A DNA stretch of 64,000 bases from positions 70,432,001 through 70,496,000 of the forward strand of contig OX597816.1 of the NCBI GenBank assembly GCA_951406725.2, read 5' to 3'. The translations under genes were made by a program, and so were the position numbers. Source of the DNA: Octopus vulgaris. Lineage: Eukaryota. Positions 12,728-32,505 of this stretch are shown in pieces. Under the pieces are notes generated by a model. That model was not told where the DNA came from. It worked only from the letters and a program-made list of their open reading frames with translations, and made no database searches. The first letter of the stretch is position 1, and every line of letters starts with the position of its first letter.

Positions 12728-12761
12728 TATATATAAGTTTCGTACATACATACATACATAC

Positions 12762-13420
12762 AGAATAAAAGGTAGAAGACATTGACAAACAACAAATGTA
12801 CGCCAAGACATCAACCACATTATTACCAGAGAATGTCGTTATTACGAAAGAATGTCCTCCAGATATTATCTTCCCGTGAGGCATGATACCGTGGCCAGAA
12901 CTCTACAACTGGAACACAATAATGAAAAAGAAAACACTTACAAACGAAGTTAACCATATTGAGACCGATGTGTCTTAATATGGATATTAGTGGAGCTTAA
13001 AAACTAAATCAGCCACCAGGTTAAAATGCAACCGGTCAGATATTGTTGTGTGGGATCATAAAAAGAAATATGTTCTGTTGTGGAAATCAGCTACCCTCTA
13101 GACACCAAGGCGATTAGAAAAATACAAGAGAACATCTATAGACTATTGATAAAGCGTTTGTAAATCCAGTACCCAAGATACACTTTCAGCTTCATACCGA
13201 TTATTATCAGAGCAACAGGTACATACTAATCTATCTGAAGCAAATTCTGGCTGAAGTTGAGATCTTGGGGAAAGAACATAAATGATTACGATATCTGAGA
13301 TTATAAAATCTTCAAGATTTAAAGGATGATGGTTAAAAAAAGATGCTTTCCTTCACAACCTGGCTACTAAGTAGATGACCGGTCAAAATTTACTCTAATT
13401 TAAAAAGTGAAAGAAAAGAA
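12762..13420 (+). mobile_element. Decayed 3' fragment of a (CATA)n-associated RLE retrotransposon
   Basis: Begins after (CATA)n. Peptides QDINHIIT, MSSRYYLPVRHDTVARTL (RHD motif), CNRSDIVVWD, VVEISYPLD; ends near (CATA)n. Confidence 0.7.
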
Positions 13421-13521
13421 CACACATGCATAAATGCATACATAAACAGACACACATACATACATACATACATACATACATACATACATACATACATACA
13501 TACATACATACATACATACAT

Positions 13522-14177
13522 AAGAACTCATAGTATGGTAGAATTCATAGCCACTCATAATAAAAAGGATTACTGAGGGAATGTTCCAGTGAAAATCTTA
13601 ATAAAATGTAAGCATAACAAACCTGACATGGTAATTTGGGATAGAGAAGAGAAACTGTGCACAGTTGCGGAAATCAGTTGCTCAGTAGATGTTAAGATAA
13701 ACCTAACGATTAGCGAAAAAGAAAATACCTACGCTGAACTATTGAGGAATCTACACCTACTCTATCCAGATTACCAAGTTCAGGTTTATACCGGTAATTA
13801 CTGGAACACTGGGATATGTTACACACTGCCCAAATACCAATCTTGAGAAATTAAACTTCTCAGAACCAGAAAGGAGAAAGCTGATTCGAAGATAACAGAT
13901 CCAAGCCATCACTGGAAGTGTAAAAATCTGTAAAACTTGCCAGAAGTTTATCATTTAAGTACATATGAACATGTCTAGACATGCAACAATATCCATGAGA
14001 ATACATACATAAAACAAAACAGCGAAAGCTGCACATATACATCCATTCATACAAAAATACCCTGATGATGTCGATGAAAAATTCCAATGAAGGAGCCTTG
14101 GATCTAGGTTAGAAACCAGCTCTTTCTCTATTGGCAAGAAATCTTGAAATAAATCTTGAAGTAAAACTGAATAACGA
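13522..14177 (+). mobile_element. 3' fragment (RLE domain plus 3'UTR) of a (CATA)n-associated retrotransposon
   Basis: KHNKPDMVIWDREEKLCTVAEISC..EKENTYAELLRNLHLLYPDY, frameshift, KFRFIPVITGTLGYV..QIQAITGSVKICKT; (CATA)n at both ends. Confidence 0.85.
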
Positions 14178-14274
14178 CATACATACATAAGTATATGTAT
14201 ATACTTATTGATATATGCTTATTTATATATACATTTATGCAATTCTATATATATGCATGTATATATACACACAC

Positions 14275-14325
<51 letters not shown>

Positions 14326-14772
14326 CATATACATATATTCATATATAAAAATGAATAAATATTCAAAAGATATTTATATAGATATTATTAATTATTATTA
14401 GTAGTAGTAGTAGTACAATAATAACTACAATAATGTAAGTGGCCAGCAAGCAAAAGCCGATAAATGGCAAATCCAAAATGTCCATAATTAATTTATACTT
14501 TTAACAGGGCGCAGGAAGTGCCGACATTGGTGTAAAAATCAGAGTCGAAAATTCCTCTAATAAACCACCAATCACTGGAAATACAATATGCATAACAGAA
14601 ATCGGGCGACTAACAAAGAAATTAACTTACCATCTCGACGGAAAGCCGCAGAATGAGGCAATAGATATCCCTGGATCAAATGATTTCAAATTTTGGGATT
14701 AACTCCCTTGTCTGTACCTCACGTGCCCTATTATAATTATAAATACATATATATGTGTGTGTATGTGTATGT

Positions 14773-14811
<39 letters not shown>

Positions 14812-15756
14812 TATATATATGTATGCATATATATTTATTTATATATAAATGTATTCACCTATAAGTGTATGTGTATGTATATATGTAAGTAGGTATATGC
14901 AGGTACATTATGTGTGTATATCTGAATAAATATGTGTGTACGTGTGCTTGTGCGTGCGTGTATGTGTATGTCTGTGTGTATGTGTGTGTGTGCATGTGTG
15001 TGTGCGCGTGTATGTACACGCACATACATACCCAGAAGGAGAAAGAGAGAAAGAGGTTACGTTTTTATTCACATGTTTTATCATCTATCCTTTGTGAAAG
15101 TAAACATTCGATTCTTTGGTTTTGTTTTCGTTTTATATTGTATCCGTTCTTTTTATTGCTGTAATATTTTTGCGTTGTTTTCATTCTTTCAGAAACTATT
15201 TTACTTTCATACATACAAAACACAGAATGACAAATGTCTGGTATTAAGTTAGCATTGCTTTCTTGTGATTACTCACTCTGTCACTTTTCTAAATATAATC
15301 AATTTTTCAACTCCAATTATCTACTAGGTACTGTTTTGTCTCTAACTAAAAATAACTTTTGCTTTGTTTCTCACTTAGAAAACGTTTGTTGGTGATATTT
15401 TGCTATTTTGAAAGGCAATAGAGTTATTATTCTGTAGTTTAATAATGCTCAGCTTTACGATAAGAACGCAGCCATTACTGAGATGTCGTCTGCAAAATTT
15501 CATACATTTCATACACTGCATGTATTAGTGTAAAGCAACGCTAGAGTATTGTATAAGATCTATTCGATGATAAAGTTGAGAGTATCAGAGAATTCGGGCT
15601 GGTTTTGTTGTTATTGTTATGGATTTAATATCGAAATAATCTAAACATAATTAGTCACATCGAAAGGATTTACATTCAGAACGTAAAGACATGTAACTAA
15701 AGGGCAAGAAAGCTGTGTCTATCAAATTACTATCCTAGCAATAATTATACTTTTTA

Positions 15757-15830
<74 letters not shown>

Positions 15831-15835
15831 TGATG

Positions 15836-15908
<73 letters not shown>
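15757..15908. repeat. (AAT)n target array
   Basis: Seen directly. Confidence 0.95.
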
Positions 15909-15913
<5 letters not shown>

Positions 15914-18671
15914 GCCTTCTTGGCAAGAGCGTCTGCAACAACAAATTAAAATATTTAGATCTGACATTGAATATTTGAAAAACCTTAAGGCTCACAAGAT
16001 TACCAAACCTACAAAAACCCCAAAATTACTGAAAAAATACAATATGAAAACTATACTTGATATTGATGCCACCATAGAAACCATCAAACAAAAGGTATCT
16101 GCCAAAGCTGCCCGCATAGCGAGGTATGAAAAGCGTGTTAGATTTTTCAAGGACAACAACATGTTCAAAAATAACACCAAGAATTTTTACAGGAAGATAG
16201 GAAAAACAGCGTTTACTGCAGGGTCTGTACCATCAAAAGAAGAAGTGCAGAGATTTTGGAATAAAATCTGGGCAGAAGAAAAAACACACAACGAAAAGGC
16301 TCCCTGGATTGACAGAATATCTACAGAACTGGACCCCTTAGAAGAGCAAAAGTGGGAGGGTGTCAAGGTAGAAGATATAAGATCTGCTCTCAGGAGGTCA
16401 AGCAAATGGAAGTCTCCAGGAAAGGATAAAATTCCTAACTTCTGGCTGAATGCCTTCCCAGAGAGCCATGAACTGCTAACAGAACTGTACAATGATGTTT
16501 TGCAACACCCTAGTAGGATGCCTCCTTGGCTAGTTAATGGGTTAACATTCCTGCTTCCAAAAAGTGAAGAAACAAATGAACCAAAAAACTATAGACCCAT
16601 AACCTGCTTAACAACTATGTACAAAACACTAACATCTGTCCTGACGGAATATACCTATAGTTTTTTAACAGACAGCAGCATATACCCTAATGAACAGAAA
16701 GGATGTAAACGTGGATCCTACGGCTGTAAAGACCAACTACTCATCAATAAGATGATCTTAGAAGATTGTCACAAACGACACAAAAACTTATCAATAGCCT
16801 GGATAGACTATAAAAAGGCTTTTGATAGCCTACCACATAGCTGGATTAGGAAATGCCTTGAAATGTATAAGATAGCACCAACTCTGCGAAACTTCTTGAC
16901 TGTAAGTATGAGATCATGGAGAACCACACTAACTCTGAACAGTGACAGTGAATCCCTAAATGCTGGTGATGTAAAAATTTCGTGTGGCATTTTCCAGGGT
17001 GACTCACTGTCACCACTCCTCTTTTGTTTATCCTTAATACCTCTCTCAAAGCTGCTCAATGACGCGCAGTACGGGTATAAAATGTTTGATAAAAATATAA
17101 ATCATCTCGTTTACATGGATGATTTAAAGCTTTTTGCAAAAAATGATCAACAACTCAAGGGCTTACTAGCGATAGTCAAACAATTCAGTGACGACATCAG
17201 AATGCAATTCGGCCTCGATAAATGTGCAAAGGCTACCTTTATCAAAGGAAAAATGACAGAAACATCTAACGTTAACCTTGACCAACAGAATGTCATAAAA
17301 GAACTAGACCCAGCGGAGAGCTACAAGTACCTAGGGATAATTGAAGGGAACGGAATAAGGCATTCAGAGATGAAGGAAAGGATCAGGAGAGAATGCTATC
17401 GAAGAGTGAGAGCAATACTCAAGACTGAGCTGAATGCAAGAAACAGGATCGAAGCAATCAATGCATTAGCTATACTAGTCGTGACTTACAGTTTCAATAT
17501 TGTTAACTGGTCAATTACTGAAATATGTCAGCTCGACAGAAAAATAAGGAAACTGTTGACAATGCATAGAATGCACCACCCTAAGGCAGATACAGAACGA
17601 CTCTATCTGCCAAGAAAAGAGGGAGGCCGTGGTCTTTTGCAACTGGCAATAACAATGAAGATTGCTACAATTGGCCTAGACACCTACCTGAAAAACTCTG
17701 AGGACTGGATGCTAAAACTTGTCTCAAAACATGAAAACAAGAAAGCATCATACTCAGTCACAAAACAGGCAAAGGAATATCTAAGTGAACTCCGAATACA
17801 ACCAATTTCGGAATTAGAGATAGATATACAAGAAACAAGCACAGAAAAAGCTAGGCGCATGAAAACCCGTGCCAAAACTGCGGCCTTAGATATTCTGAAT
17901 AATAAATGGCAAGAAAAACCTCTCTATGGCAAATACCCAAAGAGAGCGAATAATGCAGATATCGACAAAGCCCTGACCCATCAATGGCTAATGGCCTCTG
18001 GCTTAAAATCTGAAACAGAGGGGTTTATCATAGCAGCTCAAGATCAATGCCTACCAACAAGAAACTACCAGGCCAACATATTAAAGATCAGAAGCAGTCC
18101 AACGTGTCGTGTATGCAAGCAACAAAATGAAACCATTGACCATGTGGTCTCCAAGTGCAGTCTTCTAGCGCCTACAGAGTATCTCAACAGGCACGATAGA
18201 GCTGCACAATATATTCACTGGGTAATCTGTAAAAACCTGGATTTGCCCCATGAAAAAAACTGGTGGGAACACAAACCACCCCCAGTGCTTGAAAATGACC
18301 ACATCTCACTCCTCTGGAACTTCACCATTCAAACTGACAGGAAGATAGATGCAAATAGGCCAGACATCATATTGAAAAACTTCAAACAAAGAACATGCCT
18401 CCTCATTGATATGACTGTCCCAATCGATATAAACGTATCTGTCAAGACCTACCAAAAACTGAGCAAATATAAAGATCTTGAAATAGAAATCAGCAAAATG
18501 TGGAAGCTGAAGACTAAAACAATACCTGTTGTCATAGGTGCCCTGGGAATGATAGCAAAAGGGGCTGATAGCTACCTAACTCAGATACCAGGAAACCCAA
18601 AAATGGCAGAAGTTCAAAAGATAGTGCTCATGGGAACTGCTCATATCCTACGCAAAATACTCTCTATGTAA
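15909..18671 (+). CDS. RT - CCHC - restriction-like endonuclease polyprotein (5'-truncated, frame intact)
   Basis: Frame is open from 15909 (KKPSWQERL). Motifs KSPGKD, NYRPITCL, IDYKKAFDS, GIFQGDSLSP, YMDD, YKYLG, GGRGL, CRVC-x8-H-x4-C, RHD, RPDII..LLIDMTVP..KLSKY. No native start codon or N-terminal Myb domain. Confidence 0.92.
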
Positions 18672-18892
18672 TCTCAAGGTTTAAAACAAACATAATTTTC
18701 GGTTTAAAAAAAAAAAAAAAAAAAAACCTTTTTTTTTTTTTTAGACATTCATTAGTACAACATCCCCACCCCCCAAATATATGGCACACTAGGCATAACA
18801 ACAACATGAACTTCCAACCCTGTTGTCTCTTGAGGTCTCTGGGTGAGACTTGGAGCCAACTTGTACAAATATAAAGCAAAAGTCAAACATAG
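15909..18892 (+). mobile_element. R4/Dong-like RLE non-LTR retrotransposon, family A copy 1 (5'-truncated)
   Basis: Single ORF plus ~220 bp 3'UTR, bounded by (AAT)n on both sides. Confidence 0.92.
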
Positions 18893-18913
18893 AATAATAA
18901 TAATAATAATAAC

Positions 18914-19470
18914 TGCCCTGATGCAGTACCAGGCAGTGGCTCTCATGGCTTCTGATCTTAACTGATTGGAAGTATTATCATGTACATTGTTTTGTCTTGG
19001 TATAAAAGATGGGCTACAGCAAATATTCTGCTCAATACCACAGTTTTGCCTTGTCAGTTGTTTGACCTTAACCAGTTGAGCATGTCCCTTAGAGGCTAAC
19101 GATGTGTGCATCTCTGATCACGAGCAGAAGTAGTGGGGGAGCATCATAGCCGTATGTTGAAAGGAATTCTTTGGGGTTTGAATAATTCACCTCTAGAAAC
19201 ATATGTGTTTCGTTCAACATCCTTAAATAACCCTTATTCAGGGACCTTTTGAGCGGGATGTATTGCTCGACCTGAAGAAAATTCTACCTGGGCCCCACCC
19301 GCAAGGTCATGTGCTGTTTATCTAGATATGAGATCACCATGTCCCGCACATATTGTTGTGATGCATGTGCCTAGTGTACCCTTATCAGACGGGTAGTCAT
19401 GATGGATATACTGGGCTTCGTATATTTTACCCCAGTGTCACTTTGATGGCATGCACTGCTCTTTCACTCA
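18914..19470 (+). mobile_element. TAA-associated non-coding element, apparently full length
   Basis: Lies between (AAT)n tracts; its two ends match those of other copies (tgccctgatgca ... cactca). Confidence 0.88.
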
Positions 19471-19493
19471 ATAATAATAATGATAATAATAAT

Positions 19494-19540
<47 letters not shown>

Positions 19541-19542
<2 letters not shown>

Positions 19543-21692
19543 TCAATAGCCTGGATAGACTATAAAAAGGCTTCTGATAGCCAAACTTATCAATAGCCTG
19601 GATAGACTATAAAAAGGCTTTTGATAGCCTACCACATAGCTGGATTAGGAAATGCCTTGAAATGTATAAGATAGCACCAACTCTGCGAAACTTCTTGACT
19701 GTAAGTATGAGATCATGGAGAACCACACTAACTCTGAACAGTGACAGTGAATCCCTAAATGCTGGTGATGTAAAAATTTCGTGTGGCATTTTCCAGGGTG
19801 ACTCACTGTCACCACTCCTCTTTTGTTTATCCTTAATACCTCTCTCAAAGCTGCTCAATGACGCGCAGTACGGGTATAAAATGTTTGATAAAAATATAAA
19901 TCATCTCGTTTACATGGATGATTTAAAGCTTTTTGCAAAAAATGATCAACAACTCAAGGGCTTACTAGCGATAGTCAAACAATTCAGTGACGACATCAGA
20001 ATGCAATTCGGCCTCGATAAATGTGCAAAGGCTACCTTTATCAAAGGAAAAATGACAGAAACATCTAACGTTAACCTTGACCAACAGAATGTCATAAAAG
20101 AACTAGACCCAGCGGAGAGCTACAAGTACCTAGGGATAATTGAAGGGAACGGAATAAGGCATTCAGAGATGAAGGAAAGGATCAGGAGAGAATGCTATCG
20201 AAGAGTGAGAGCAATACTCAAGACTGAGCTGAATGCAAGAAACAGGATCGAAGCAATCAATGCATTAGCTATACTAGTCGTGACTTACAGTTTCAATATT
20301 GTTAACTGGTCAATTACTGAAATATGTCAGCTCGACAGAAAAATAAGGAAACTGTTGACAATGCATAGAATGCACCACCCTAAGGCAGATACAGAACGAC
20401 TCTATCTGCCAAGAAAAGAGGGAGGCCGTGGTCTTTTGCAACTGGCAATAACAATGAAGATTGCTACAATTGGCCTAGACACCTACCTGAAAAACTCTGA
20501 GGACTGGATGCTAAAACTTGTCTCAAAACATGAAAACAAGGAAGCATCATACTCAGTCACAAAACAGGCAAAGGAATATCTAAGTGAATTCCGAATACAA
20601 CCAATTTCGGAATTAGAGATAGATATACAAGAAACAAGCACAGAAAAAGCTAGGCGCATGAAAACCCGTGCCAAAACTGCGGCCTTAGATATTCTGAATA
20701 ATAAATGGCAAGAAAAACCTCTCTATGGCAAATACCCAAAGAGAGCGAATAATGCAGATATCGACAAAGCCCTGACCCATCAATGGCTAATGGCCTCTGG
20801 CTTAAAATCTGAAACAGAGGGGTTTATCATAGCAGCTCAAGATCAATGCCTACCAACAAGAAACTACCAGGCCAACATATTAAAGATCAGAAGCAGTCCA
20901 ACGTGTCGTGTATGCAAGCAACAAAATGAAACCATTGACCATGTGGTCTCCAAGTGCAGTCTTCTAGCGCCTACAGAGTATCTCAACAGGCACGATAGAG
21001 CTGCACAATATATTCACTGGGTAATCTGTAAAAACCTGGATTTGCCCCATGAAAAAAACTGGTGGGAACACAAACCACCCCCAGTGCTTGAAAATGACCA
21101 CATCTCACTCCTCTGGAACTTCACCATTCAAACTGACAGGAAGATAGATGCAAATAGGCCAGACATCATATTGAAAAACTTCAAACAAAGAACATGCCTC
21201 CTCATTGATATGACTGTCCCAATCGATATAAACGTATCTGTCAAGACCTACCAAAAACTGAGCAAATATAAAGATCTTGAAATAGAAATCAGCAAAATGT
21301 GGAAGCTGAAGACTAAAACAATACCTGTTGTCATAGGTGCCCTGGGAATGATAGCAAAAGGGGCTGATAGCTACCTAACTCAGATACCAGGAAACCCAAA
21401 AATGGCAGAAGTTCAAAAGATAGTGCTCATGGGAACTGCTCATATCCTACGCAAAATACTCTCTATGTAATCTCAAGGTTTAAAACAAACATAATTTTCG
21501 GTTTAAAAAAAAAAAAAAAAAAAAAACCTTTTTTTTTTTTTTTAGACATTCATTAGTACAACATCCCCACCCCCCAAATATATGGCACACTAGGCATAAC
21601 AACAACATGAACTTCCAACCCTGTTGTCTCTTGAGGTCTCTGGGTGAGACTTGGAGCCAACTTGTACAAATATAAAGCAAAAGTCAAACATA

Positions 21693-21693
<1 letters not shown>
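19541..21693 (+). mobile_element. R4/Dong-like element, family A copy 2 (5'-truncated, 42 bp duplication at the 5' junction)
   Basis: 19583-21470 matches 16784-18671 at offset 2799; (AAT)n flanks. Confidence 0.92.
19662..21470 (+). CDS. C-terminal 602 aa of the family A polyprotein (partial RT, CCHC, RLE)
   Basis: Identical to copy 1 in translation except K>E (20541) and L>F (20589). Confidence 0.88.
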   Translation: MYKIAPTLRNFLTVSMRSWRTTLTLNSDSESLNAGDVKISCGIFQGDSLSPLLFCLSLIPLSKLLNDAQYGYKMFDKNINHLVYMDDLKLFAKNDQQLKGLLAIVKQFSDDIRMQFGLDKCAKATFIKGKMTETSNVNLDQQNVIKELDPAESYKYLGIIEGNGIRHSEMKERIRRECYRRVRAILKTELNARNRIEAINALAILVVTYSFNIVNWSITEICQLDRKIRKLLTMHRMHHPKADTERLYLPRKEGGRGLLQLAITMKIATIGLDTYLKNSEDWMLKLVSKHENKEASYSVTKQAKEYLSEFRIQPISELEIDIQETSTEKARRMKTRAKTAALDILNNKWQEKPLYGKYPKRANNADIDKALTHQWLMASGLKSETEGFIIAAQDQCLPTRNYQANILKIRSSPTCRVCKQQNETIDHVVSKCSLLAPTEYLNRHDRAAQYIHWVICKNLDLPHEKNWWEHKPPPVLENDHISLLWNFTIQTDRKIDANRPDIILKNFKQRTCLLIDMTVPIDINVSVKTYQKLSKYKDLEIEISKMWKLKTKTIPVVIGALGMIAKGADSYLTQIPGNPKMAEVQKIVLMGTAHILRKILSM

Positions 21694-21751
<58 letters not shown>

Positions 21752-21787
21752 TTAATAATAACAACAATAATAATAACAATAATAATA

Positions 21788-21853
<66 letters not shown>

Positions 21854-21924
21854 TCTAATTTTAACTCAAGCCAAGCAATTTCGAGAGATGATAACTGAAG
21901 TTCATCTTTAACAGTTTTTAATTA

Positions 21925-22275
21925 GTACTTTATTTCATTGATTCCGAAGTATGAAAGGTAAAGCTAAGCTCAGCGGGTTTCGAACTAAGGAAGTAAAGAG
22001 TCGGAAGAAACACCGTTAAGTATTTTGTTTGATGTGCTAACCATTCTACCAGCTCACCGCCTTTTCTCCTGGTGGTTTAACATTTTGGAACAAGGCCAGC
22101 AATTTCGAGTGGCTAGGATTAGTTGATACCTCACTGATAATTTATTTCATCAACTCTGGATGTATGAAAGGTTAAGTTGGTCTCGGTGGAATTTGAACTC
22201 AGAATGTAAGGATTGAAAGAATATCCCGCAGAATATTTCTTGCCATTCTTTTACAGATCCACTACCAAGCCACCT
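21925..22275 (-). mobile_element. Degenerate family 1 SINE copies
   Basis: gaaaggtaaag..cgaact and ctcggtggaatttgaactcagaatgtaa motifs. Confidence 0.6.
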
Positions 22276-22304
22276 TTTTAAATAATGATAATGATAATAA
22301 TAAT

Positions 22305-24869
22305 AAAGTTCTACCAAGAACTTGGCAAAAATAAAATAGAAATTACTGCAGCACCAACGGCAGAAGAATTGGAAGAATTCTGGAGAGAAATATGGTCGGC
22401 GAACGAACAACCAAAAAAAGGAGTATTAAAACAACAAACTCAGCATCTGAGCAACTTTGGACCCCCATAACAACTGAAGAGGTTATCCAGGCACTGCAAA
22501 GACTAAGCAACTGGAAGGCACCTGGGCATGACAAGATCCCCAACTTCTGGTTGAAATATCTAACAGGAATGCACAAAAAGCTGGCTGAAAATTTTAACAA
22601 CATACTAGCAGAGCCAGAGACAATGCCCGAATGGCTCACGAAGGGGAAAACCATCTTAATTCCCAAATCAAATGAGACAGCAAAATCGGAAAACTACAGA
22701 CCAATAACCTGTCTCCCTACAATGTACAAGGCATTTACTGCAGTGATATCGCAAAGGTTGAACAAGCACCTGGACGAAAACAACCTGTTTCCAGAAGAGC
22801 AGAAAGGATGCCGCAAAGGCTCATATGGCCGTAAAGATCAACTAATGATTAATAAAGCCATAACTGAAGACAGCCACAGAAAGAAGAAAGGCCTCAGTAT
22901 GGCCTGGATCGACAACAAAAAGGCATTTGATAGCATCCCCCACACATGGATCCTCGAAACACTAGCCATTAACAAAGTAGTACCAACAATTATAAAATTC
23001 ATAGAGCACTCTATGAATAAATGGCAAACAGTGCTACAGCTCCAAACAAAAGAGGGACTCGTGAAAACCAAAGACATCCCCATTAGAAGAGGAATATTCC
23101 AAGGAGACACGCTCTCTCCACTCCTTTTCTGCTTGGCACTGTCACCTCTATTTGATATGCTAAATAGAACTGGATGCGGATATAAATTTTACGGCAAAAC
23201 AATCAGCCACCTTTTATATATGGATGACCTAAAACTATACGCTGCAAATGACAAATAGCTGGAAACATTATTAAAGACATTTCATGGATTTACCAAAGAA
23301 ATAGATATGAAATTTGGATTAGAAAAATGCGCCAAAGTAACCATGAAAAGAGGAAAACTAGTTAAGAGTAGCAACATCACACTAGATAAAACCAATGAAA
23401 TATAAGAATTAGACCAAAGCCAAACATATAAATACTTAGGAATCCATGAACTAGATAAGACACAACACACACAAATAAAAGAGAAAATAAAAAAGAATAT
23501 TATAGACGAGTTAGGTCAATACTAAAAACAGAGCTCAATGCTAAAAACAAGATAATAGGTATTAACACTTTAGCTGTCCCAGTTATAAGTTACAGCTACA
23601 ATATCCTTAACTGGACACTAAATGAACTGACCAAAATAGATAGGAAAACAAGAAAAATAATGACAGGATCTAGGATGCATCACCCAAAATCTGACATAGA
23701 AAGACTATATATACAACGTATAGAAGGTGGTAGAGGCCTTATACAGCTGGAAAACTACTATAAAATAACCACCGTAGGACAGCAAAAATATCTACTTCAG
23801 AAGGAAGGAAAACTGATACAAAAAGCGGCAAAACACGAGCAAAACAAAAAACTGTTCTCAGTATTTAAGGAAGCTGACAAATACAAACAAGAAATCATAC
23901 CACCTAATAAATATGAAGAACAAGAAGAAGATGAAGAAACAACAAAAGCTATAAAACAAATGAAATCCAAACTAAAAATAGAACAGCAACGAACCATGAT
24001 AAAACGATGGCAAGAAAAGCCCCTTCATGGTAAATACTGCACTAAACTAAACGCAAAAGAAATAGACAAAGAAAGATCCCAGCAATGATTGAGAAGCTCA
24101 GGACTCAAGGCAGAGACAGAGGGATTTTTAATTGCAGGCACAAGACCAAAGCCTCCCCACCAGAAATTACCAAAAACATGTAATGAAAAGAAATATAACA
24201 AGTAACTGCAGAATATGTGGAGATGGACAAGAAACAATAAATCATATTATCTCTGGCTGCCCAGTCCTGGCTAAGAAGGAATATATTCACAGACATGACA
24301 GAGTTGGAACCTACATACACTGGAAGCTATGCCAACATTATGGAATAGCAACTGAAAAAAGATAGTATAGGCACACACTTAGAAAAGGTCACAGAAAACG
24401 AGAAAGCAACCATACTCTGGGATATGCCGATACACACGGATAGAGAAATTAAGGCCAACAGACCAGATATAGTTGTCAGAGATCAAGAAGAAAAAAATGC
24501 TTTCTAATTGATGTATCAATACCGGCAGATGACAACGTGTCTCTAAAAGAAATGGAGAAACTTTCAAAATACAAAGACCTGGAAATAGAGGTAACCAGAA
24601 TGTGGAATCTAAAAACAGAAACAATTCCTATCATAGTAGGTGCATTAGGCATGATAAAAAAATATTCAGACAAATGCATAACAAAAACACCAGGACTTAC
24701 AACACATATAACATACAGAAAATTGCACTACTAGGCACTGCACACATCCTACGCAGAACACTTTCCATACAATAACCATCAGAGCATCACAACAAATTAC
24801 AGCACATACCTAAGGCACACAGAGCTGCGCTCGGTAGTGAAGTGAAAGCACGCTATAAAAATAAAACTA

Positions 24870-24872
<3 letters not shown>
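22305..24872 (+). mobile_element. R4/Dong-like element, family B (5'-truncated, disrupted by stops and frameshifts)
   Basis: KAPGHD, NYRPITCL, GIFQGDTLSP, YMDD followed by TAG at 23256, CRIC..H..C, RHD, RPDIV, GTAHILRRTLS; (AAT)n flanks. Confidence 0.92.
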
Positions 24873-24966
<94 letters not shown>

Positions 24967-24967
<1 letters not shown>

Positions 24968-25619
24968 GACATGACAGAGTTGGCCAATATCTCCACTGGC
25001 TAATAAGTCGGCATTACAACATCAAAACTGCCGACAAGTGGTATAATCACCACCCTGAGGCTGTAACTGAAGGAGAAAATGTAACGATTCTGTGGGACTT
25101 TCCAGTACATACAGACCGAACCATCAAGGCCAATAAACCAGATATTGTTGTGAAAGACCAAAACAATAAAGTTTGCTTATTGATTGACATGAGCATCCCC
25201 TGTGATCATAATATCTCAGCGAAAGAGTTTGACAAGCTCAGAAAATATAAAGACCTACTCATTGAAATTGAGAAAATGTGGCATCTCAAGGCGGTTACAA
25301 TACCAGTGATCGTAGGATCACTAGGAATGATCAAGAAGGGAACCGAAAATTATATGAGAATGATCCCTGGCTTACCATCCCTGCAAGAAGTGCAAAAGAT
25401 TGTCTTAACTGGTACATCACACGTATTGAGAAGAGCATTGTCGATGTGAGAATTATTACTACCCATGTACTTTAATTTAACTTAAAAAATTGAAAAAAAT
25501 GAACGAACTATTGAGTTTAGTTTAATGGCCTACCAATGTATACTATGAGTTTATTTGCCCTAGGAGTTGGGAAGACACTCGGCAAGAAATGGAAGCAAAT
25601 TTGAAAGAAGAAAACAAAA

Positions 25620-25620
<1 letters not shown>
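24967..25620 (+). mobile_element. R4/Dong-like element, family C (3' fragment: RHD, RLE, 3'UTR)
   Basis: Open frame 24967-25449: RHDRVGQYLHW..NKPDIVVKD..LLIDMSIP..KLRKYKDL..GTSHVLRRALSM*; (AAT)n on both sides. Confidence 0.9.
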
Positions 25621-25700
<80 letters not shown>

Positions 25701-25736
25701 GTAATAATAATGATAATAATAATAATAATAGTAGTA

Positions 25737-25831
<95 letters not shown>
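25621..25831. repeat. (TAA)n tail/target array
   Basis: Seen directly. Confidence 0.95.
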
Positions 25832-25832
<1 letters not shown>

Positions 25833-26914
25833 CTATTATGTTTTTTTAAGTATGCCTGGTTGGCAGAACCGCTAGAGAGTCGGGGAAAATGGGTAAAAAT
25901 ATTTGTTCTACGTTTACCACTGAGATAAATTTTGCGTTTCAGCCTTTCGTGGTCCATATATAAAATACAAACCCAATACTAGTACAGTTTCTCTTATTCT
26001 AGCTGCCATATTCTAGATGGTCTGTTGAGCCAAGAGTTGTAAAACCAAGAGAGTGAGTTTGCACTTTTTTAATACAAAAAACCATTAACAGAAGCATGGT
26101 GAATACTGACACCATGCCAACATCCCCTGCAAGTGGCGGTCAAAACAATTCATCACCATATATTTATGACAAGACAATACTCTTCATCAGTATATCTACT
26201 AGAAGCAGTTGTTGGTTAGTTCATGTAGATTGTTGTGTGAATGTATATAAAGTGATATTAAAATGGTTGAGGAATGTTTTCTATCAGCATCAGTCAAATT
26301 GATTTCTTTCCGATTAAACAGAAGAAAGCTATATTTTATGAGATAACGTGTGGCCCTCATGTGGTGGGTTAATTCTTCGCTATACTTAGTAGCAAACTCT
26401 CTGTCTTCAAATCTTTAATGGTTCAAAGCAGAAAAGAAACCTGTGTAACAAAGAAAATGTCTTCAATGCATTATAACTTAGTGAATAGAATTAGAGACGG
26501 AAATTGTGCAAAAGCATACTGTACGTACATACATACATACATACATACATACATACATACATACATACATACATACATACATACATACATACATACATAC
26601 ATACATCATATAGTATAAATGCAAAGCATAATATAAAAGATAACAAAAGAGGAACAAACTTTGGCGAATAAGAACGTTAGCTTCAAGGGTTAGGAGCTAG
26701 ATGAGATATTGATTTATAAAGGGGGTTAAGCAGAGAAAAATGATGACTGTGTCGATTCAAGTATAGAAGTGTATCCATGTCTGAAAGCATTAATGAAAAG
26801 AGAATGGTGGATGTGTGTGCGTCGGTGTGGTGTATGTGTGTGTGTCTAAACGTGTACAAGTCAGAAAGTATAGTGGGGTTGGTTTGTGAGTGTGACAGAG
26901 AAGGAGTGCATGAA

Positions 26915-27575
26915 TAATTGTATGGTATGTGGTTGGTCTTCAAATCTCATATATGGCTAGCCAACTTGGTGGATTTATTTTTGTCGATGAGTCCGAATGG
27001 AGGTTTGCATAAAGTTTTTTTTAATTGCCTTCACCTAAACCGATGTATGTTTTCTTTTCGTTTGCTTTATCTTAAAGCACTTCTGTGACTTCATAAAAGA
27101 CTGAGTTTATCACACACATCCGATAAAATGGACATGCTTCAGGGTCTCGACAGTTACAATTAGGTATGGACTCTTGGAGGGACTTGTGAGTAATAATGTC
27201 CTTCCTATTGGGCAGCAGCTGTATGAAACTTTATCGAGAGTCTATTAAAAATCTTCCTATATCTGTGGCTTACAGGGAAATGTCTAATAATGCCTGAAAT
27301 TTCATACCTGTGTTAGTTTTTGTATTTAACGGGAAAGGTGGTGGTCGAACCATATTATTTTCCTTGATCTATTTATAGGTTTCTTATTTTTAATCATAAG
27401 ATATCTTTGAAACGACTGTTAGCTAGGACATTGTTGTAGTAGGGAGATGCCTTATCTGGAATTTCCTTTGCAGAGGAGAGATTAGATATCCTGTTACTGA
27501 TATTGGCTTTCAGGATTTTAAACACTACAGTGGGTGGGAGGACAGGACTGTTCTTGCATCTATATGAGTTTCTTA
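26915..27575 (-). pseudogene. Decayed Penelope-like element: RT thumb, linker and GIY-YIG endonuclease
   Basis: Minus peptides ISNRISNLSSAKEIPDKASPYYNNVL, HFPVSHRYRKIFNR, SYSCCPN, CNCRDPEACPFYRMCVINSVFYEV, KTYIGLGEG, STKLASHI. Confidence 0.8.
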
Positions 27576-27680
27576 CTCAGATTATTAGAGCGCGAGTTTA
27601 AGGCTTGGAGAACATTAAAGAAATCGACTTTGAACAGATTAGTAGTTTCAGTAATTATATAATTTTAAAAATGAGTAAAT

Positions 27681-27717
<37 letters not shown>

Positions 27718-27723
27718 TGTCTG

Positions 27724-28133
27724 TATGTCATTATTCAGTTTATTTCAAGATTTATTGCCAATAGAGAAAGAACCGGTTTCTAACCTACATCCAAGGCTCC
27801 TTCATTAGAATTTCAACATCAACAGGGTATTTTTGTTTATTTGTATGTATGTCTGTCTGTCTATCTGTATGTATGTATGTATGTACATATGTATGTACGT
27901 ATGTATGTATGTATGTATGTATGTATGTATGTATGTATGTATGTATGTATGTATGTATGTATGTGCAGATTTATATGTTTTATGTATGTATGAGAATGTA
28001 TTTTCATACATACAGTTGCATATCTGGACATGCTCATATATACTTAAATGATAAACTTCTGGAAAGTTTCACAAATTTTTACAGTTCCAGTGATGGATCG
28101 GATCTGTAGTCTTCCGATTAGTTTTCTCCTTTT
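27724..28133 (-). mobile_element. 3' fragment of the (CATA)n-associated RLE family
   Basis: Reverse complement matches ~13870-14180 (RRKLIGRLQIRSITGTVKICETFQKFII*, then 3'UTR); (TATG)n at the junctions. Confidence 0.85.
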
Positions 28134-28640
28134 GTATGTATGTATGTATGTATGTATGTATGATTGTATGTATGTACAGTACATATAATACATAGGAAAC
28201 TTGTGAAGTGGTTTCACCATGGGCGATGAGAGACAGAACGACGAATAAGTTAGGAGTACTTTTGGGGAAATAGTACGAGACCAAAGAATTGTGAGTGGCA
28301 GACATAACTGTAATTTCAATGTAAAAAGGTAAAGATTAACGATACTTCTGTTGGCTAGCGTATGGAATGAAGTAAATAGCGCTTTATGATATTGGTGTTC
28401 TTCGTAGTGATGGCGTTGGTAAAAATTGCTGTTTTTATCGTTATTGCCGATCAGGGGTCGTTACTAATCGAGAAAATTTCTTCATCAAAATTGTCCCAGT
28501 CTTCTCACTCGTGTCTTTCTTTATAAGGAACAAAGTAGATATCATAAGAAAGTAATCAAGTAGCGAAATAAAAGAATGCCATTCAATACTTGGAATCACC
28601 GCAGGTCATATCTATCAACCGTTCTATCTATCTATTTATC

Positions 28641-28697
<57 letters not shown>

Positions 28698-29564
28698 GTA
28701 CGTCTGCCTGTCTTTCTTTCTCCCCCTTTCGTTTTCTCTCTCTTCCTTTCTCTAATTCTTTTTTCTCCCCTTCTCCCCTTTCGTTTTTCTCTCACATTCT
28801 TTTTCTAGTTCTCTTTTCTCTCCCCTTCACCGTTTTCTAGCTCTCTCTCTCTCTCTCTTTCTTTTACTCTCGCTCTCGTTGCTCACACGTGATCATCGAC
28901 CATCTTTCTTTTCCTCACGTGATCATCTTTCTTTTTTGAAGTCTGTCCTACAGACCAGACGCATTCTTGTCTGTCTCCTCTTCTGTTTATTCTCTTGTCA
29001 AAGACAATATTCAATTCCGTCAGCTTTCGCTACCTTAATTCGTCTGGCCTAACGGCCTTCCATGTTTATTTTCGTTTGGCTTGTTGTATGCCTCCATTAT
29101 CCTGTTTTTGTTACCAACTTAAACCCTCCGCAAATTCCAAATTTCATTTTGGTTCGCGGGAGCAACTGCCTTTTCGAAGACTCATATTGTCGTTAATTGC
29201 TCGAAATGAGGAGTAGATGGACAGCCGAGAAATGATGAAGAGTCGTTTTTTATGTTGTTTGTTTTCCATTTGTTTCTCTCGTTGTTCGCATACAAAAGTT
29301 TGTCTTCGTATTTCATTTTGTTTACCTTTTGTGACGTCATGTACCCATATATGCATATATATATATATATACATATGTATGTATGTACATATATGTATAT
29401 ATGCATATATATATATATTATTTACATTATATATATATATATATATATATATATACTTGTTTGTACATATATCGCAGTGCGTGTGTGCGTGCGTATATAT
29501 GTGTGTGTATGTGTGTGTGTATGTTTGTGTGTGTGTCTGTGTGTATAGTATGTATGCATGCAGA

Positions 29565-29712
29565 CGTGGTTGTGTTGGAAAGAACATTGCTTCCCAGTCA
29601 CATGGTTCCGAGTTCCGGCCTACTGTTACCTTGGGCAAGTGTCCTCTACTTTAGCCTCGGGCTGACCAAAGCCTCGTGAGTGGATTTGGTAGACGGAAAT
29701 TGAAAGAAACCC

Positions 29713-29803
<91 letters not shown>

Positions 29804-30020
29804 TTTGCTTGTTTGCGCCTGTGTTTGCCCCTCCACCATCGCTTGACAACCGATGTTGGTGTGTTTACTTTTCCGTAACTTAGCTGTTCGGCAAAAGATA
29901 CCGACAGGGTAAGTACTCGGCTTACAAAGAATAAGTCGTGGAGTCTATTTGTTCGACTAAAACTTTTTAAGGTTGTGCTCCAGCATGGTCGCAGTCATGA
30001 AATAAATACAAGAATAAAAG
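29565..30020 (+). mobile_element. tRNA-derived SINE, family 2
   Basis: ccttgggcaagtg..gtgagtggatttggtagacggaa..(TG)n..cagcatggtcgcagtc. Confidence 0.85.
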
Positions 30021-30099
30021 AATGTACATACATACATATACATTGATGGACAGATAAATACAAACATGCATGCGCATACATACACACATATACGTGTAC

Positions 30100-30156
<57 letters not shown>

Positions 30157-30683
30157 TTCCTATCGGTAGAAGAATGCGGAAAATAATGTAGATCTTGTTA
30201 GTAAAAGATAATGGTAGTTATAAAATAATGATATTAAAAATTAGAATGATTCATAGAGTTAGCTATACTTTTAAGAAAAAAGTAGGGGGAGGGAGAATGT
30301 AAGTAGAAAGTAAATCTGAAATACGTATAGCAGGTGGTGTAATTATGTTGTACGATCTTATACAAAGAGACAATATCATCGAGATATCGTGATGCACTGA
30401 ATAGCAGAGTTGCTCACAGAACCAATCAAGATTCGATTTAATATTACATCAAAACACTAAGAAAAATTATCTCCTATGTTACCAAGTGCATTTATATTAA
30501 TACATCATGTGACAAAACTTAACAGGATAGAAGAAAGTATTATACTAATTACAGCAGATCTTTTTATTTTTTTTTTTACATAAGATGTTAAAAATTATAT
30601 TCGAGTTCTATATACCAGGAACAAGATAAATAATGTATATATGCATGTATACGTGCGTGTTTGGGTGAGTGAGTGGGTTTGCG

Positions 30684-30722
<39 letters not shown>

Positions 30723-31249
30723 TGTGCCTCCTCAACAGACTGCTCAATCACTTTATGCACGAAGATACGATACAATTAACGAAACAAATCGCGAGACAGT
30801 ACATCAAAAACTGAGGACATAATCTACTCTCCGTATTCTTTCTAAAAAACTTTTCAAAAAACATATTTTTCATCCTTCTAAGAATTTTCAGCATATCTTT
30901 CATGGATCAATTCTTGTTGAATCGATACCCTGAAAAATCCAGGCCAAACATTGCTTTCTATCTTAATAAGCAAGACCAATCTCGCGACTGAATTCCCGTT
31001 TAATTTATCACCCTGCCGTTTTCATCTTATTCGTGGGCAATTTTATTTAAAAGGACTGCACAACTGCTCTTCAAATATACAGATATAGCATCAAATAAAA
31101 AAAAAAACACAGAAAAGAAACAACAGCTGTCCAGTTTGCAAGGAGACAGGTCTCCCCCAAATCATACGCTACAATCATTAATAAATGATTAAATAGTGAG
31201 CCCCAGTAACAGTACCCAGCTCTGCCCGCGTTTATTGTTATCTAATACA

Positions 31250-31445
31250 AGGCGGTGAGTTAATAGAATCATTAGCTCATCAGACACAATAGATAGTAGC
31301 ATTTATGTTCTAAGTTCAAATTTCGCCGAGGTCGGCTTTGCCTTTCATCCCTCTAGCGTCGATAAAAAAAAGTATCAGTTGAACACTGAGCTCGATGTAA
31401 TCGACTTACACCTCCCCTTAAAATTAATGGTTTTGTGCCAAATTT
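31250..31445 (+). mobile_element. SINE family 1, monomeric degenerate copy
   Basis: agttcaaatttcgccgaggtcggctttgcctttcatcc. Confidence 0.7.
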
Positions 31446-31731
31446 AAAAAGAATTATAACTTTAAATAAATATAACTATATAAATTCACTGGGGTTTTTT
31501 TAATGAATTTGTTTAAAATGATGCTGAAAATCTTCAGTTTTTCCGCGAATGTTGATTCATTCAGATCTATTGCACCCAAGCCATCCTTCACAACCTTGCA
31601 ACTCTAAATTAACTCTAAATTAAAAAGCGAAAGAGACCAAACACACGACCATACATACATACATACATACATACATACATACATACATACATACATACAT
31701 ACATACATACATACATACATACATACATACA

Positions 31732-32120
31732 TTTTGGAAGCACTCCGTCGGTTACGACGACGAGGATTCCGGTTGATCCGAATCAACGGAACAGCCTGCT
31801 CGTGAAATTAACGTGTAAGTGGCTTAGCACTCCACAGACACGTGTACCCTTAACGTAGTTCTCAGGGATATTCAGCGTGACACAGAGAGTGACAAGGCCG
31901 GCCCTTTGAAATACAGGTACAAAAGAAACAGGAAGTAAGAGTGAGAGAAAGTTGTGGTGAAAGAGTACAGCATGGGATCACCACCATCCCCTACCGGAGC
32001 CTCGTGGAGCTTTAGTGTTTTCGCTCAATAAACACTCACAACGCCCGGTCTGGGAATCGAAACAGCGATCCTATGACCGCGAGTCCGCTGCCCTAACCAC
32101 TGGGTCATTGCGCCTCCACT
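31732..32120 (-). mobile_element. tRNA-derived SINE, family 3, inside (CATA)n
   Basis: Minus head gtggaggcgcaatgacccagtggttagggcagcggactcgcggtc..tttcgattccc; (CATA)n on both sides. Confidence 0.85.
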
Positions 32121-32201
32121 CACATACATACATACATACATACATACATACATACATACATACATACATACATACATACATACATACATACATACATACA
32201 T

Positions 32202-32505
32202 AGAAACACAACACGTCTGATATAGGTATTTGGAATAGAAAAGAAAAGTCATGTACAGTCACAAAGGCTCATTCTAAAAAGGGCAAGAAGAAAATTTGAT
32301 GTACAACTGCTTCGAAATCTGCACCTTTTCTCTTCTGATTATAAATTCACAATTGTACCAACAAATATTGGAACACATGGTTGAGTTTAAGTGACAATCG
32401 GGAAAAGTTAGTATTTTAAGACGAAGGGAAAAGATGACTAATACGTATAAATCTGTAAGCGGAACAGCTAAAATATGTAAAACTTTTCTAAGGTTCAACT
32501 TGTAG
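32202..32505 (+). mobile_element. Decayed RLE fragment of the (CATA)n-associated group
   Basis: After (CATA)n: KHNTSDIGIWNRKEKSCTV ... LLRNLHLFSSDYKFTIVP ... SVSGTAKICKTFLRF, homologous to 13589-13958. Confidence 0.75.

Follow-up and report, generated by a model that had tools for sequence, protein, structure and literature searches.

Retrotransposon fragments in the window

The window, which is the entire stretch of 64,000 nucleotides of Octopus vulgaris DNA analyzed here, contains four fragments of retrotransposons with a restriction-like endonuclease (RLE), each located directly behind a (CATA)n tract in its own sense orientation, and a short fifth trace (Table 1). A preliminary description made from the sequence alone had reported the same positions and strands for the four fragments and the same tract before each of them. 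This description had further assigned all four to one homologous RLE C-terminus; the fragments are indeed 5'-truncated copies from a single R4/Dong-type non-LTR retrotransposon lineage, but they represent three families (A, B and one nearest D) rather than one. The nuclease motifs are lacking in the minus-strand family A copy, which retains only the end of the reading frame and the 3' UTR. In translation, the family B copy comprises a CCHC remnant, RHD and a PD..EIS nuclease, followed by a short 3' UTR.

Table 1. Retrotransposon fragments, CATA tracts and the TAA-flanked control in the window
Feature	Position	Strand	Remarks
(CATA)n tract, 5' junction of family B copy	12743..12762	+	
Family B copy, 5'-truncated, frameshifted	12763..13420	+	78% to B consensus over 720 nt
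(CATA)n tract, 26 units	13420..13522	+	Borders the 3' end of B and the 5' end of A
Family A copy, 5'-truncated, nuclease domain and full 3' UTR	13523..14177	+	81% to A consensus
Degenerate CATA tract within family A 3' UTR	14001..14052	+	
Three CATA units, 3' junction of A copy	14176..14189	+	
TAA-flanked Dong-type ORF, 920 aa	15909..18668	+	Control, outside the CATA lineage
Family A copy, last 29 codons and 3' UTR	27724..28132	-	92-94% to A consensus
Expanded internal 3' UTR CATA tract, ~30 units	27842..27964	-	
(CATA)n tract, 5' junction of minus-strand A copy	28133..28176	-	
Fifth trace, 32 nt of family B 3' end	31603..31634	+	87.5%, E 4e-5
(CATA)20 after the B trace	31650-31732	+	
(CATA)20 tract, 5' junction of oldest fragment	32122..32202	+	
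Old nuclease-domain fragment, internally deleted, nearest family D	32203..32505	+	68% over 221 nt to D consensus

The B and A copies on the two sides of the 26-unit tract form a mixed head-to-tail tandem, in which the A copy is truncated at consensus position ~3408 and has 3 letters in common with the tract. In agreement with the preliminary description, three fragments end at or near CATA (a long tract after B, three units after A and ~1.5 units after the minus-strand A copy), and no CATA follows the oldest fragment, for which the best matches in the genome are at 67-76%, with the exception of one 54-nt match. Assignment of the (CATA)20 tract before this fragment to a neighboring tRNA-like SINE was rejected: CATA is found at 0/32 and TATG at 1/32 of the SINE ends. 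The insertion of the minus-strand A copy predates the split from another organism, E, because an E contig runs from the flank into the 3' end of the element.

The CATA tract in the 3' UTR of family A is real and family-wide, as 65 of the 84 copies that reach it enter the same 104-nt piece beyond. The proposal that this tract supplies new targets is supported in part: at six loci, a copy starts directly behind an A body with its internal tract, but a 3' piece that is both duplicated and displaced was not detected.

Structure of the element and its protein

The full-length consensus that the preliminary description had recommended rebuilding was obtained for family A from 105 segments; it spans ~4.05 kb and contains one open frame of 1,223 codons with the motifs FFVDD, CxxC-H-C, RHD and PD..E..Y (CCHC at 1027, RHD at 1056, nuclease at 1113). 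Pfam RVT_1 was identified in natural copies and in relatives, and the Pfam scans revealed no APE family in the lineage. A profile built from 20 relatives aligns with R2 proteins over the RT through to the nuclease (E 2e-52), and six relatives have intact frames of 1,153-1,217 aa. The lineage is closer to the TAA-flanked Dong-type ORFs (E 2e-128) than to R2. The earlier inference that the protein is of the RLE type and distinct from the TAA families is borne out by its low identity to the TAA-flanked ORF (29% over 918 aa) and by a tree, unrooted and built without named R4, Rex6, NeSL and HERO elements, in which the lineage forms one 0.84-long branch (SH-aLRT 100) apart from TAA Dong. It is not a new kind of element, given its R4/Dong layout, and is likely to be a separate branch of this known retrotransposon group that is aimed at four-letter repeats instead of TAA.

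The N-terminal 92 aa are predicted to form three helices (pLDDT 87), and two conserved tryptophans in this region align with the TAA-type relatives. The best structural matches of the model are SANT/Myb-type domains, with middling scores (Z at most 7.0, rmsd 2.0, 72 aligned); a Foldseek search with the same model gave no match at E 0.001, and the N-terminus shows no zinc-finger pattern.

The 3' end of the element is fixed and followed by ACATAC, and 5' truncation occurs at many positions, with 7,280 candidates for the 3' piece vs 379 for the 5' end. Hairpins are present at the 5' end; an Rfam search of three long copies yielded no ribozyme match, only microsatellite-driven miRNA matches. Family A looks dead in this genome, its copies being at a median of 7% from the consensus.

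CATA tracts at the junctions

Sense CATA precedes 24 of the 31 full-length and 52 of the 94 truncated family A 5' ends, compared to opposite-strand TATG at 0/31 and 2/94, respectively. The CATA background is 366/20,000 (1.8%), so that CATA occurs at truncated ends ~30 times more often than expected by chance (binomial p ~2e-64). Truncated 5' junctions, for which the preliminary description had named a lack of CATA enrichment as a refutation of its proposal, are strongly and strand-specifically enriched for CATA. The same motif is found at 8/13 bystander copies, which lie outside the family A sampling, at 44/62 complete family A 3' ends, and, in replicates, at the 5' ends of 12/22 new A loci, 14/32 family B copies and 12/19 family D copies. 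None of the 31 TAA-Dong controls shows CATA (three families, 0/6, 0/10 and 0/15), and TAA is absent from the 5' ends of all three lineage families (0/125 for A, 0/32 for B, 0/19 for D). By the strict rule, 42/94 truncated ends lack CATA, probably as a result of subsequent insertions or deletions and of decay of the tract; some of these ends are located on (CA)n or (CATC)n.

At 32 direct joins, the tract and the element have a mean of 2.0 letters in common vs 0.8 by chance (p 2e-7); for the family B joins (n=8), the microhomology is borderline (p 0.055). Judging by the join sequences, this excess fits insertion into a pre-existing tract. Microhomology at joins could also stem from later deletions. 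Some breakpoints recur, namely 791 three times and 3408 twice. Where the nearest upstream neighbor is an A or B 3' end, it is in the same orientation 17 times and in the opposite orientation once. Tracts of at least 8 units are found at 46/125 upstream and 7/41 downstream junctions.

In 600 kb of pre-chosen DNA, only 3 of the 69 CATA tracts are followed by these families; therefore, tracts exist without an element. CATA also adjoins an abundant SINE-like repeat at one fixed point (31/85) and, therefore, adjacency alone is not unique to the lineage. No target duplications above the level of shuffled pairs were detected among 42 copies (562/2,000 shuffles as high); the apparent cases were lost in this shuffle test, and the best of them corresponds to a family D copy at its 3' end. 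The search for empty sites via host repeats gave no clean case among 79 copies with both flanks, and none of 169 starts revealed an element copy that interrupts the SINE-like repeat. In public runs, no contig spans 27724-28133 or locus L035; these contigs break at repeats and hence are uninformative either way. No RNA data set is listed as containing the sequence.

Proposed mechanism and alternative explanations

We consider it very probable that these are single-ORF R4/Dong-type elements lying in sense orientation behind (CATA)n, with Myb-like binding, RLE nicking and target-primed copying all likely. The protein likely binds the CATA tract via its predicted N-terminal Myb-like domain, the C-terminal restriction-like nuclease likely nicks the tract, and the RNA is likely copied into the nick by target-primed reverse transcription. 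By analogy with R2, the first nick would fall on the TATG strand, with which a few CATA letters from the 3' end of the RNA would then pair; the cDNA end would next anneal, through microhomology, to the CATA strand on the upstream side. The 3' junction would remain a target, which would lead to head-to-tail tandems. The greater tract length on the upstream side would be in keeping with a protein that contacts mainly the DNA upstream.

The same difference in tract length would also be expected if the elements had no sequence preference and made CATA themselves, by RTE-like slippage of the 3' tail and, at the 5' side, through slipping or template jumping by the reverse transcriptase. Such an origin is consistent with the near-constant presence of ACATAC after the 3' end, even with no tract at the 5' side, with the CATA tract carried by the element RNA itself, and with the fact that no empty site was seen. 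However, a tail cannot account for tracts at 5' ends that are truncated at many positions, and the same 5' tract occurs in three families with different 3' UTRs; the excess of letters common to tract and element at the joins implies that the tract was already there for pairing, and the majority of CATA tracts are not followed by an element. Taken together, self-made CATA appears highly improbable.

Targeting could be looser, directed at any CA-rich purine-pyrimidine repeat (CAYA, CA, CATC) of which CATA is the commonest match. Indeed, (CA)n is found at 5/94 truncated 5' ends, 9/62 A 3' ends and 7/32 B 3' ends, and there are single (CATC)n cases. Given, however, that the (CA)n background is about the same as that of CATA (364 vs 366 of 20,000), yet (CA)n is ten times rarer at 5' junctions, that (TA)n is three times commoner in the background but not enriched at junctions, and that CATA tracts decay to CA runs, this explanation seems unlikely. 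Passive accumulation, whereby copies survive or assemble better beside microsatellites or the tracts arise later beside old repeats, might be suspected in a microsatellite-rich genome with old copies (median 7% and 12% from consensus), but it is already contradicted by the strand and family controls: the strand bias is strict (52 vs 2), no such bias is seen for other repeats of this DNA (TAA-type, 0/31; others, 0/32 and 2/147), and intact relatives elsewhere have the same flanks. This leaves it next to no probability.

Relatives in other hosts

Intact relatives in metagenome contigs have (CATA)n flanks in one record set and (CTTA)n flanks in another. CATA borders L265 and L268 at both ends, as CTTA does L263; CTTA is also seen at the 5' side of L261, L262 and L271 and at the 3' side of L266, L267, L272 and L273. 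A metagenome contig yields one or two junctions for each family, since copies are collapsed in these assemblies and the contigs end at repeats. Judging from these flanks, the lineage is not confined to one host and has (CTTA)n as a second target, which relatives elsewhere appear to have reached through a one-base shift. Argonauta hians is the only organism named within the lineage in cluster look-ups; its copies (P0037, P0202-P0204) are near-identical and are at 64% to family B. The viral contigs contain no relative. The protein atlas holds RT clusters with almost no taxa.

We tentatively suggest, as a possibility that is slightly more doubtful than not, that these elements form a sister lineage of Dong that is ancient, widespread and so far undescribed and merits clade rank, with a specialization in four-letter microsatellites and target switches between (CATA)n and (CTTA)n. 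If so, its many intact members would provide a natural series for studying how target choice is set by an RLE together with a single Myb-like domain, and RNA-templated inserters directed to non-coding repeats could be drawn from it.

Comparison with known elements

Target choice by RLE retrotransposons is understood mainly from R2. Unlike R2, the present lineage shows no N-terminal zinc-finger pattern and no 28S target (the flanks of three long copies do not match rRNA). The R4 of nematodes generates a 13-bp target duplication. Compared by description to this R4, the clade layout is the same, but the target is a microsatellite instead of rDNA and no duplication was detected. The nematode R4 is described as rDNA-specific in the available part of PMC7998251, where Dong is reported to target (TAA)n in most insects, molluscs and cnidarians, and where a role of the Myb-like domain in R4/Dong target choice is a proposal only. 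As far as these accounts go (PMC7998251, PMC3812793), the lineage resembles Dong in having one ORF with an RT and a C-terminal RLE and a microsatellite target, and possibly also in a SANT/Myb-like N-terminus without zinc fingers; it differs in its target, (CATA)n or (CTTA)n rather than (TAA)n, and in the internal 3' UTR CATA tract of family A. Intact members differing by one target base (CATA, CTTA), beside TAA relatives, make the Myb-like-domain proposal testable.

Waldo is listed with ACAY repeats and Mino with AC repeats as targets (PMC3812793, accessible sections). ACAY includes ACAT, that is, the same tract on the same strand; however, Waldo, of the R1 clade, and Mino are APE-type and the present lineage has an RLE and no APE, so the target in common with Waldo is convergent. 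Togen, with a (TG)n target, and some HERO families are presented in the consulted portion of PMC4640811 as microsatellite-specific RLE elements near NeSL/HERO; Togen, compared here by description and not included in the tree, likewise combines an RLE with a microsatellite, but its target is a dinucleotide. The present lineage adds targets to the catalogue that is mined for RNA-templated gene insertion.

No description of a CATA-targeting RLE lineage was found in full-text searches of the literature, a coverage exclusive of Repbase, Dfam and the largest survey. No target site is given for the octopus Dong-R4 class in the available parts of PMC13282606, PMC8967140, PMC9115989 and PMC10294476; in the first of these, 'target' is absent from the main text and 'cata' from one supplement. 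In octopus-like genomes, the lineage accounts for a repeat family of ~23,000-28,000 fragments (95% range 8,000-61,000, from 5-6 matches in 600 kb), and related elements there divide the microsatellites among themselves by motif. For Octopus vulgaris, 51 Dong-R4 consensus families covering 92.7 Mb are reported (PMC13282606, in the part available), and families A, B and D are probably among these consensus sequences.

Tracts at the ends of family A copies

The preliminary description placed four fragments of one lineage in the window, and all four lie where it put them, each directly preceded by a sense-strand CATA tract (Table). At the DNA level, only the two family A fragments are similar (81%); the last fragment is nearest to family D, with close relatives absent. 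The nearest named proteins come from Octopus bimaculoides (67-75%) and Argonauta hians. Copies form head-to-tail chains that run across families, one case being the B and A fragments of the window.

The 2.8-Gb assembly containing the window was searched for family A in four rounds stepping 5'-ward, which together with 20 longer regions yielded 140 loci, selected by internal similarity, with the flanks playing no part. A junction was scored as CATA when the 30 nt upstream plus the first 6 nt of the element held 12 consecutive letters, at least 11 of which agreed with the repeat. Before filtering, this applied to 23/28 full-length and 54/110 truncated 5' ends. For filtering, internal deletions were chained, and duplicates, ends whose flank was shorter than 100 nt, starts lying within the internal TAG/CATA tracts and three starts behind rearranged A DNA were removed. 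CATA was then found at 24/31 full-length and 52/94 truncated 5' ends against a background of 366/20,000, and the opposite-strand repeat at 0/31 and 2/94, respectively, which bears out the proposed enrichment and strand bias at truncated copies. CATA also occurs at 44 of 62 complete 3' ends, 8 of 13 bystander copies and 12 of 22 5' ends in a later, separate set of A loci.

Among controls from the same DNA, three TAA-type queries had CATA at 0/6, 0/10 and 0/15 and TAA at 5/6, 4/10 and 8/15 (the third query was reverse-complemented, so that its motif reads TTA), and two other repeats had CATA at 0/32 and 2/147. A SINE-like repeat scored 31/85, at its internal microsatellite, that is, at a fixed position and not at a truncation point.

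Families B and D

Family B is older than A (11.8% divergence; 52% protein identity to A) and has CATA at 14/32 5' starts and 15/32 3' ends; its consensus covers the last 1.4 kb only, so that some starts may be alignment drop-offs. Family D was built from 11 of 13 regions whose low identity had led to their choice from 137 RT matches, with flanks still unseen; it has CATA at 12/19 5' ends and 6/11 3' ends. At three loci (L133, L372 and L377), the 104-nt piece that closes the A 3' UTR stands after family D 3' ends. Either the piece stems from A insertions of very small size whose priming took place at the internal tract, or D and A form a chimera there.

Did the tract precede the insertion?

The strand-specific association with CATA is real across the three families, and true targeting is its most likely explanation. 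Among the 94 truncated A ends, 32 abut the tract directly, 28 have other letters in between and 34 lack a tract. The direct joins share on average 2.0 letters between the two sides compared to 0.8 in simulated random joins, with at least three common letters at 13/32 compared to 7% (p 2e-7). This excess microhomology counts for a tract that preceded the insertion, as does the finding that most CATA tracts are free of these elements (only 3 of 69 long tracts in random blocks lead into them). On the other side, the microhomology could instead come from later deletions, breakpoints of truncated A copies recur, searches via host-genome copies and via contigs found no empty site, and a search of copy flanks gave no signal of target duplication. 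Long perfect tracts are commoner upstream (46/125) than downstream (7/41).

The rebuilt family A element

Once 29 duplicate loci had been set aside, the alignment of 105 segments gave a consensus of ~4.05 kb (4,118 nt including an inflated internal tract) with a single 1,223-codon frame that encodes RT, CCHC, RHD and a PD..E nuclease motif; across 918 aa, its product shares 29% of residues with the 920-aa Dong-type protein of the window, whose gene has TAA flanks. No intact copy was seen: most RT matches contain stops, and the longest stop-free RT frame has 311 aa. The median divergence from the consensus, 7.1% (146 loci, some repeated), corresponds to about 20 My on the scale of PMC13282606. 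Extrapolation from six matches in 600 kb of blocks fixed in advance gives ~23,000-28,000 genomic fragments (range 8,000-61,000).

For a natural A copy, the N-terminal stretch of 92 residues is predicted to fold into three helices, and the model best matches SANT/Myb-type domains, with middling Z. Such a domain has been proposed as the targeting module of R4/Dong (PMC7998251). Target choice would fall to the Myb-like domain, a role that we infer, along with the nicked strand and cut geometry.

A TAG (poly-serine) repeat within the ORF (consensus ~740-760) reaches dozens of units in some copies. Many copies with intact 5' ends have large internal deletions, all with different breakpoints (L133, L116, L139, L130, L120, L114, L085), and L121 carries an inversion. 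The internal 3' UTR tract ends 19 of 84 copies (among them L092, L059, L039, L120 and L114), two with a decayed remainder, which suggests priming from within the RNA or a shorter subfamily.

Relatives in other hosts

A protein search yielded 325 relatives at E <=1e-20; for the first 89 of the 120 matches listed, RT identity is mostly 41-54%. Metagenome contigs provided 80 loci, and ends were inspected at 23; at 36-51% identity to A, 12 of the 23 count as members of the lineage. Ten of these 12 carry a tract on at least one side (Table), and L264 and L274 have none. Contigs with CATA elements belong to one record set (G+C 0.43), those with CTTA elements to another (G+C ~0.31). Six members retain intact frames of 1,153-1,217 codons. 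Tandems are found here as well, since an L272-family 3' end precedes L261. Across hosts, family A, L261, L262, L263, L265 and L268 all open with a short hairpin rich in G+C, behind which stands a motif resembling GGACGTG; the hairpins have no Rfam match and might act as promoters, as ribozymes or in protein binding.

In a 53-row tree, in which part of the rows have an assigned flank motif and the others are unlabelled, a branch 0.84 long (SH-aLRT 100) sets off 38 rows including all CATA/CTTA elements. Family B pairs with an Argonauta protein (64%); CTTA requires two changes, and CATA two, possibly one. A 128-row RT tree is concordant.

Comparison with known elements

As far as the available texts go, known microsatellite targets of non-LTR elements are ACAY, AC, TC, TTC and TAA (PMC3812793), (TG)n for Togen and microsatellites for some HERO (PMC4640811), and octopus repeat papers tally Dong-R4 without target sites. 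Dong targets (TAA)n in most insects, molluscs and cnidarians (PMC7998251), whereas this lineage has CATA/CTTA flanks. CATA would be a new target variant, and the families are probably an unrecognised sub-lineage of R4/Dong. No description of a CATA- or CTTA-specific RLE element was found in the full-text literature accessible to the search, most subscription papers lying outside it, nor did the available portions of PMC13580325, PMC13586686, PMC5035012 and PMC3124438 add anything on such a target. The lineage may already sit in Repbase or in the Fell 2025 survey of 4,464 animal assemblies (figure quoted by PMC13586686); the chance that curated databases lack it is about even.

Features of the window and loci on metagenome contigs
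Feature	Position	Strand	Flank or tract
Family B fragment	12762-13420	+	CATA, 5'
Family A fragment	13522-14177	+	CATA, 5'
Dong-type ORF	15909-18668	+	TAA
Tandem Dong-type copies	16784-18912, 19583-21713		TAA
Second TAA-type family	22335-25620		TAA within ORF region, 24873-24967
Family A fragment	27724-28133	-	CATA, 5'
Fifth trace of the lineage, 32 nt of B 3' end, with tract	31603-31732		(CATA)20 follows
Fragment near family D	32202-32505	+	CATA, 5'
Short open frames	51910-53263	-	
L265, L268			CATA, both sides
L263			CTTA, both sides
L261, L262, L271			CTTA, 5' end
L266, L272; L267 and L273 (one family)			CTTA, 3' end
RT element in L285	4208-4472		3' end of 18S rRNA
RT element in L297	3653-4100		3' end of 18S rRNA

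Other elements

The tandem Dong-type copies are 99.8% identical over 2.1 kb, which together with the intact 920-codon frame of the first indicates recent activity of that family. L275 and L276, both intact and of Dong type, have TAA and TAAA repeats at their flanks, which amounts to a slight change of target inside the TAA group. The L285 and L297 elements, 86% identical to each other and 28-35% to the A/Dong-type proteins, stop directly before the conserved 18S 3' end and are possibly an R4-like family inserted near it. The short frames of the window span ~140-240 aa and resemble the first ORF of another retroelement; a CxxC-x4-H-x4-C knuckle is present in one of them.
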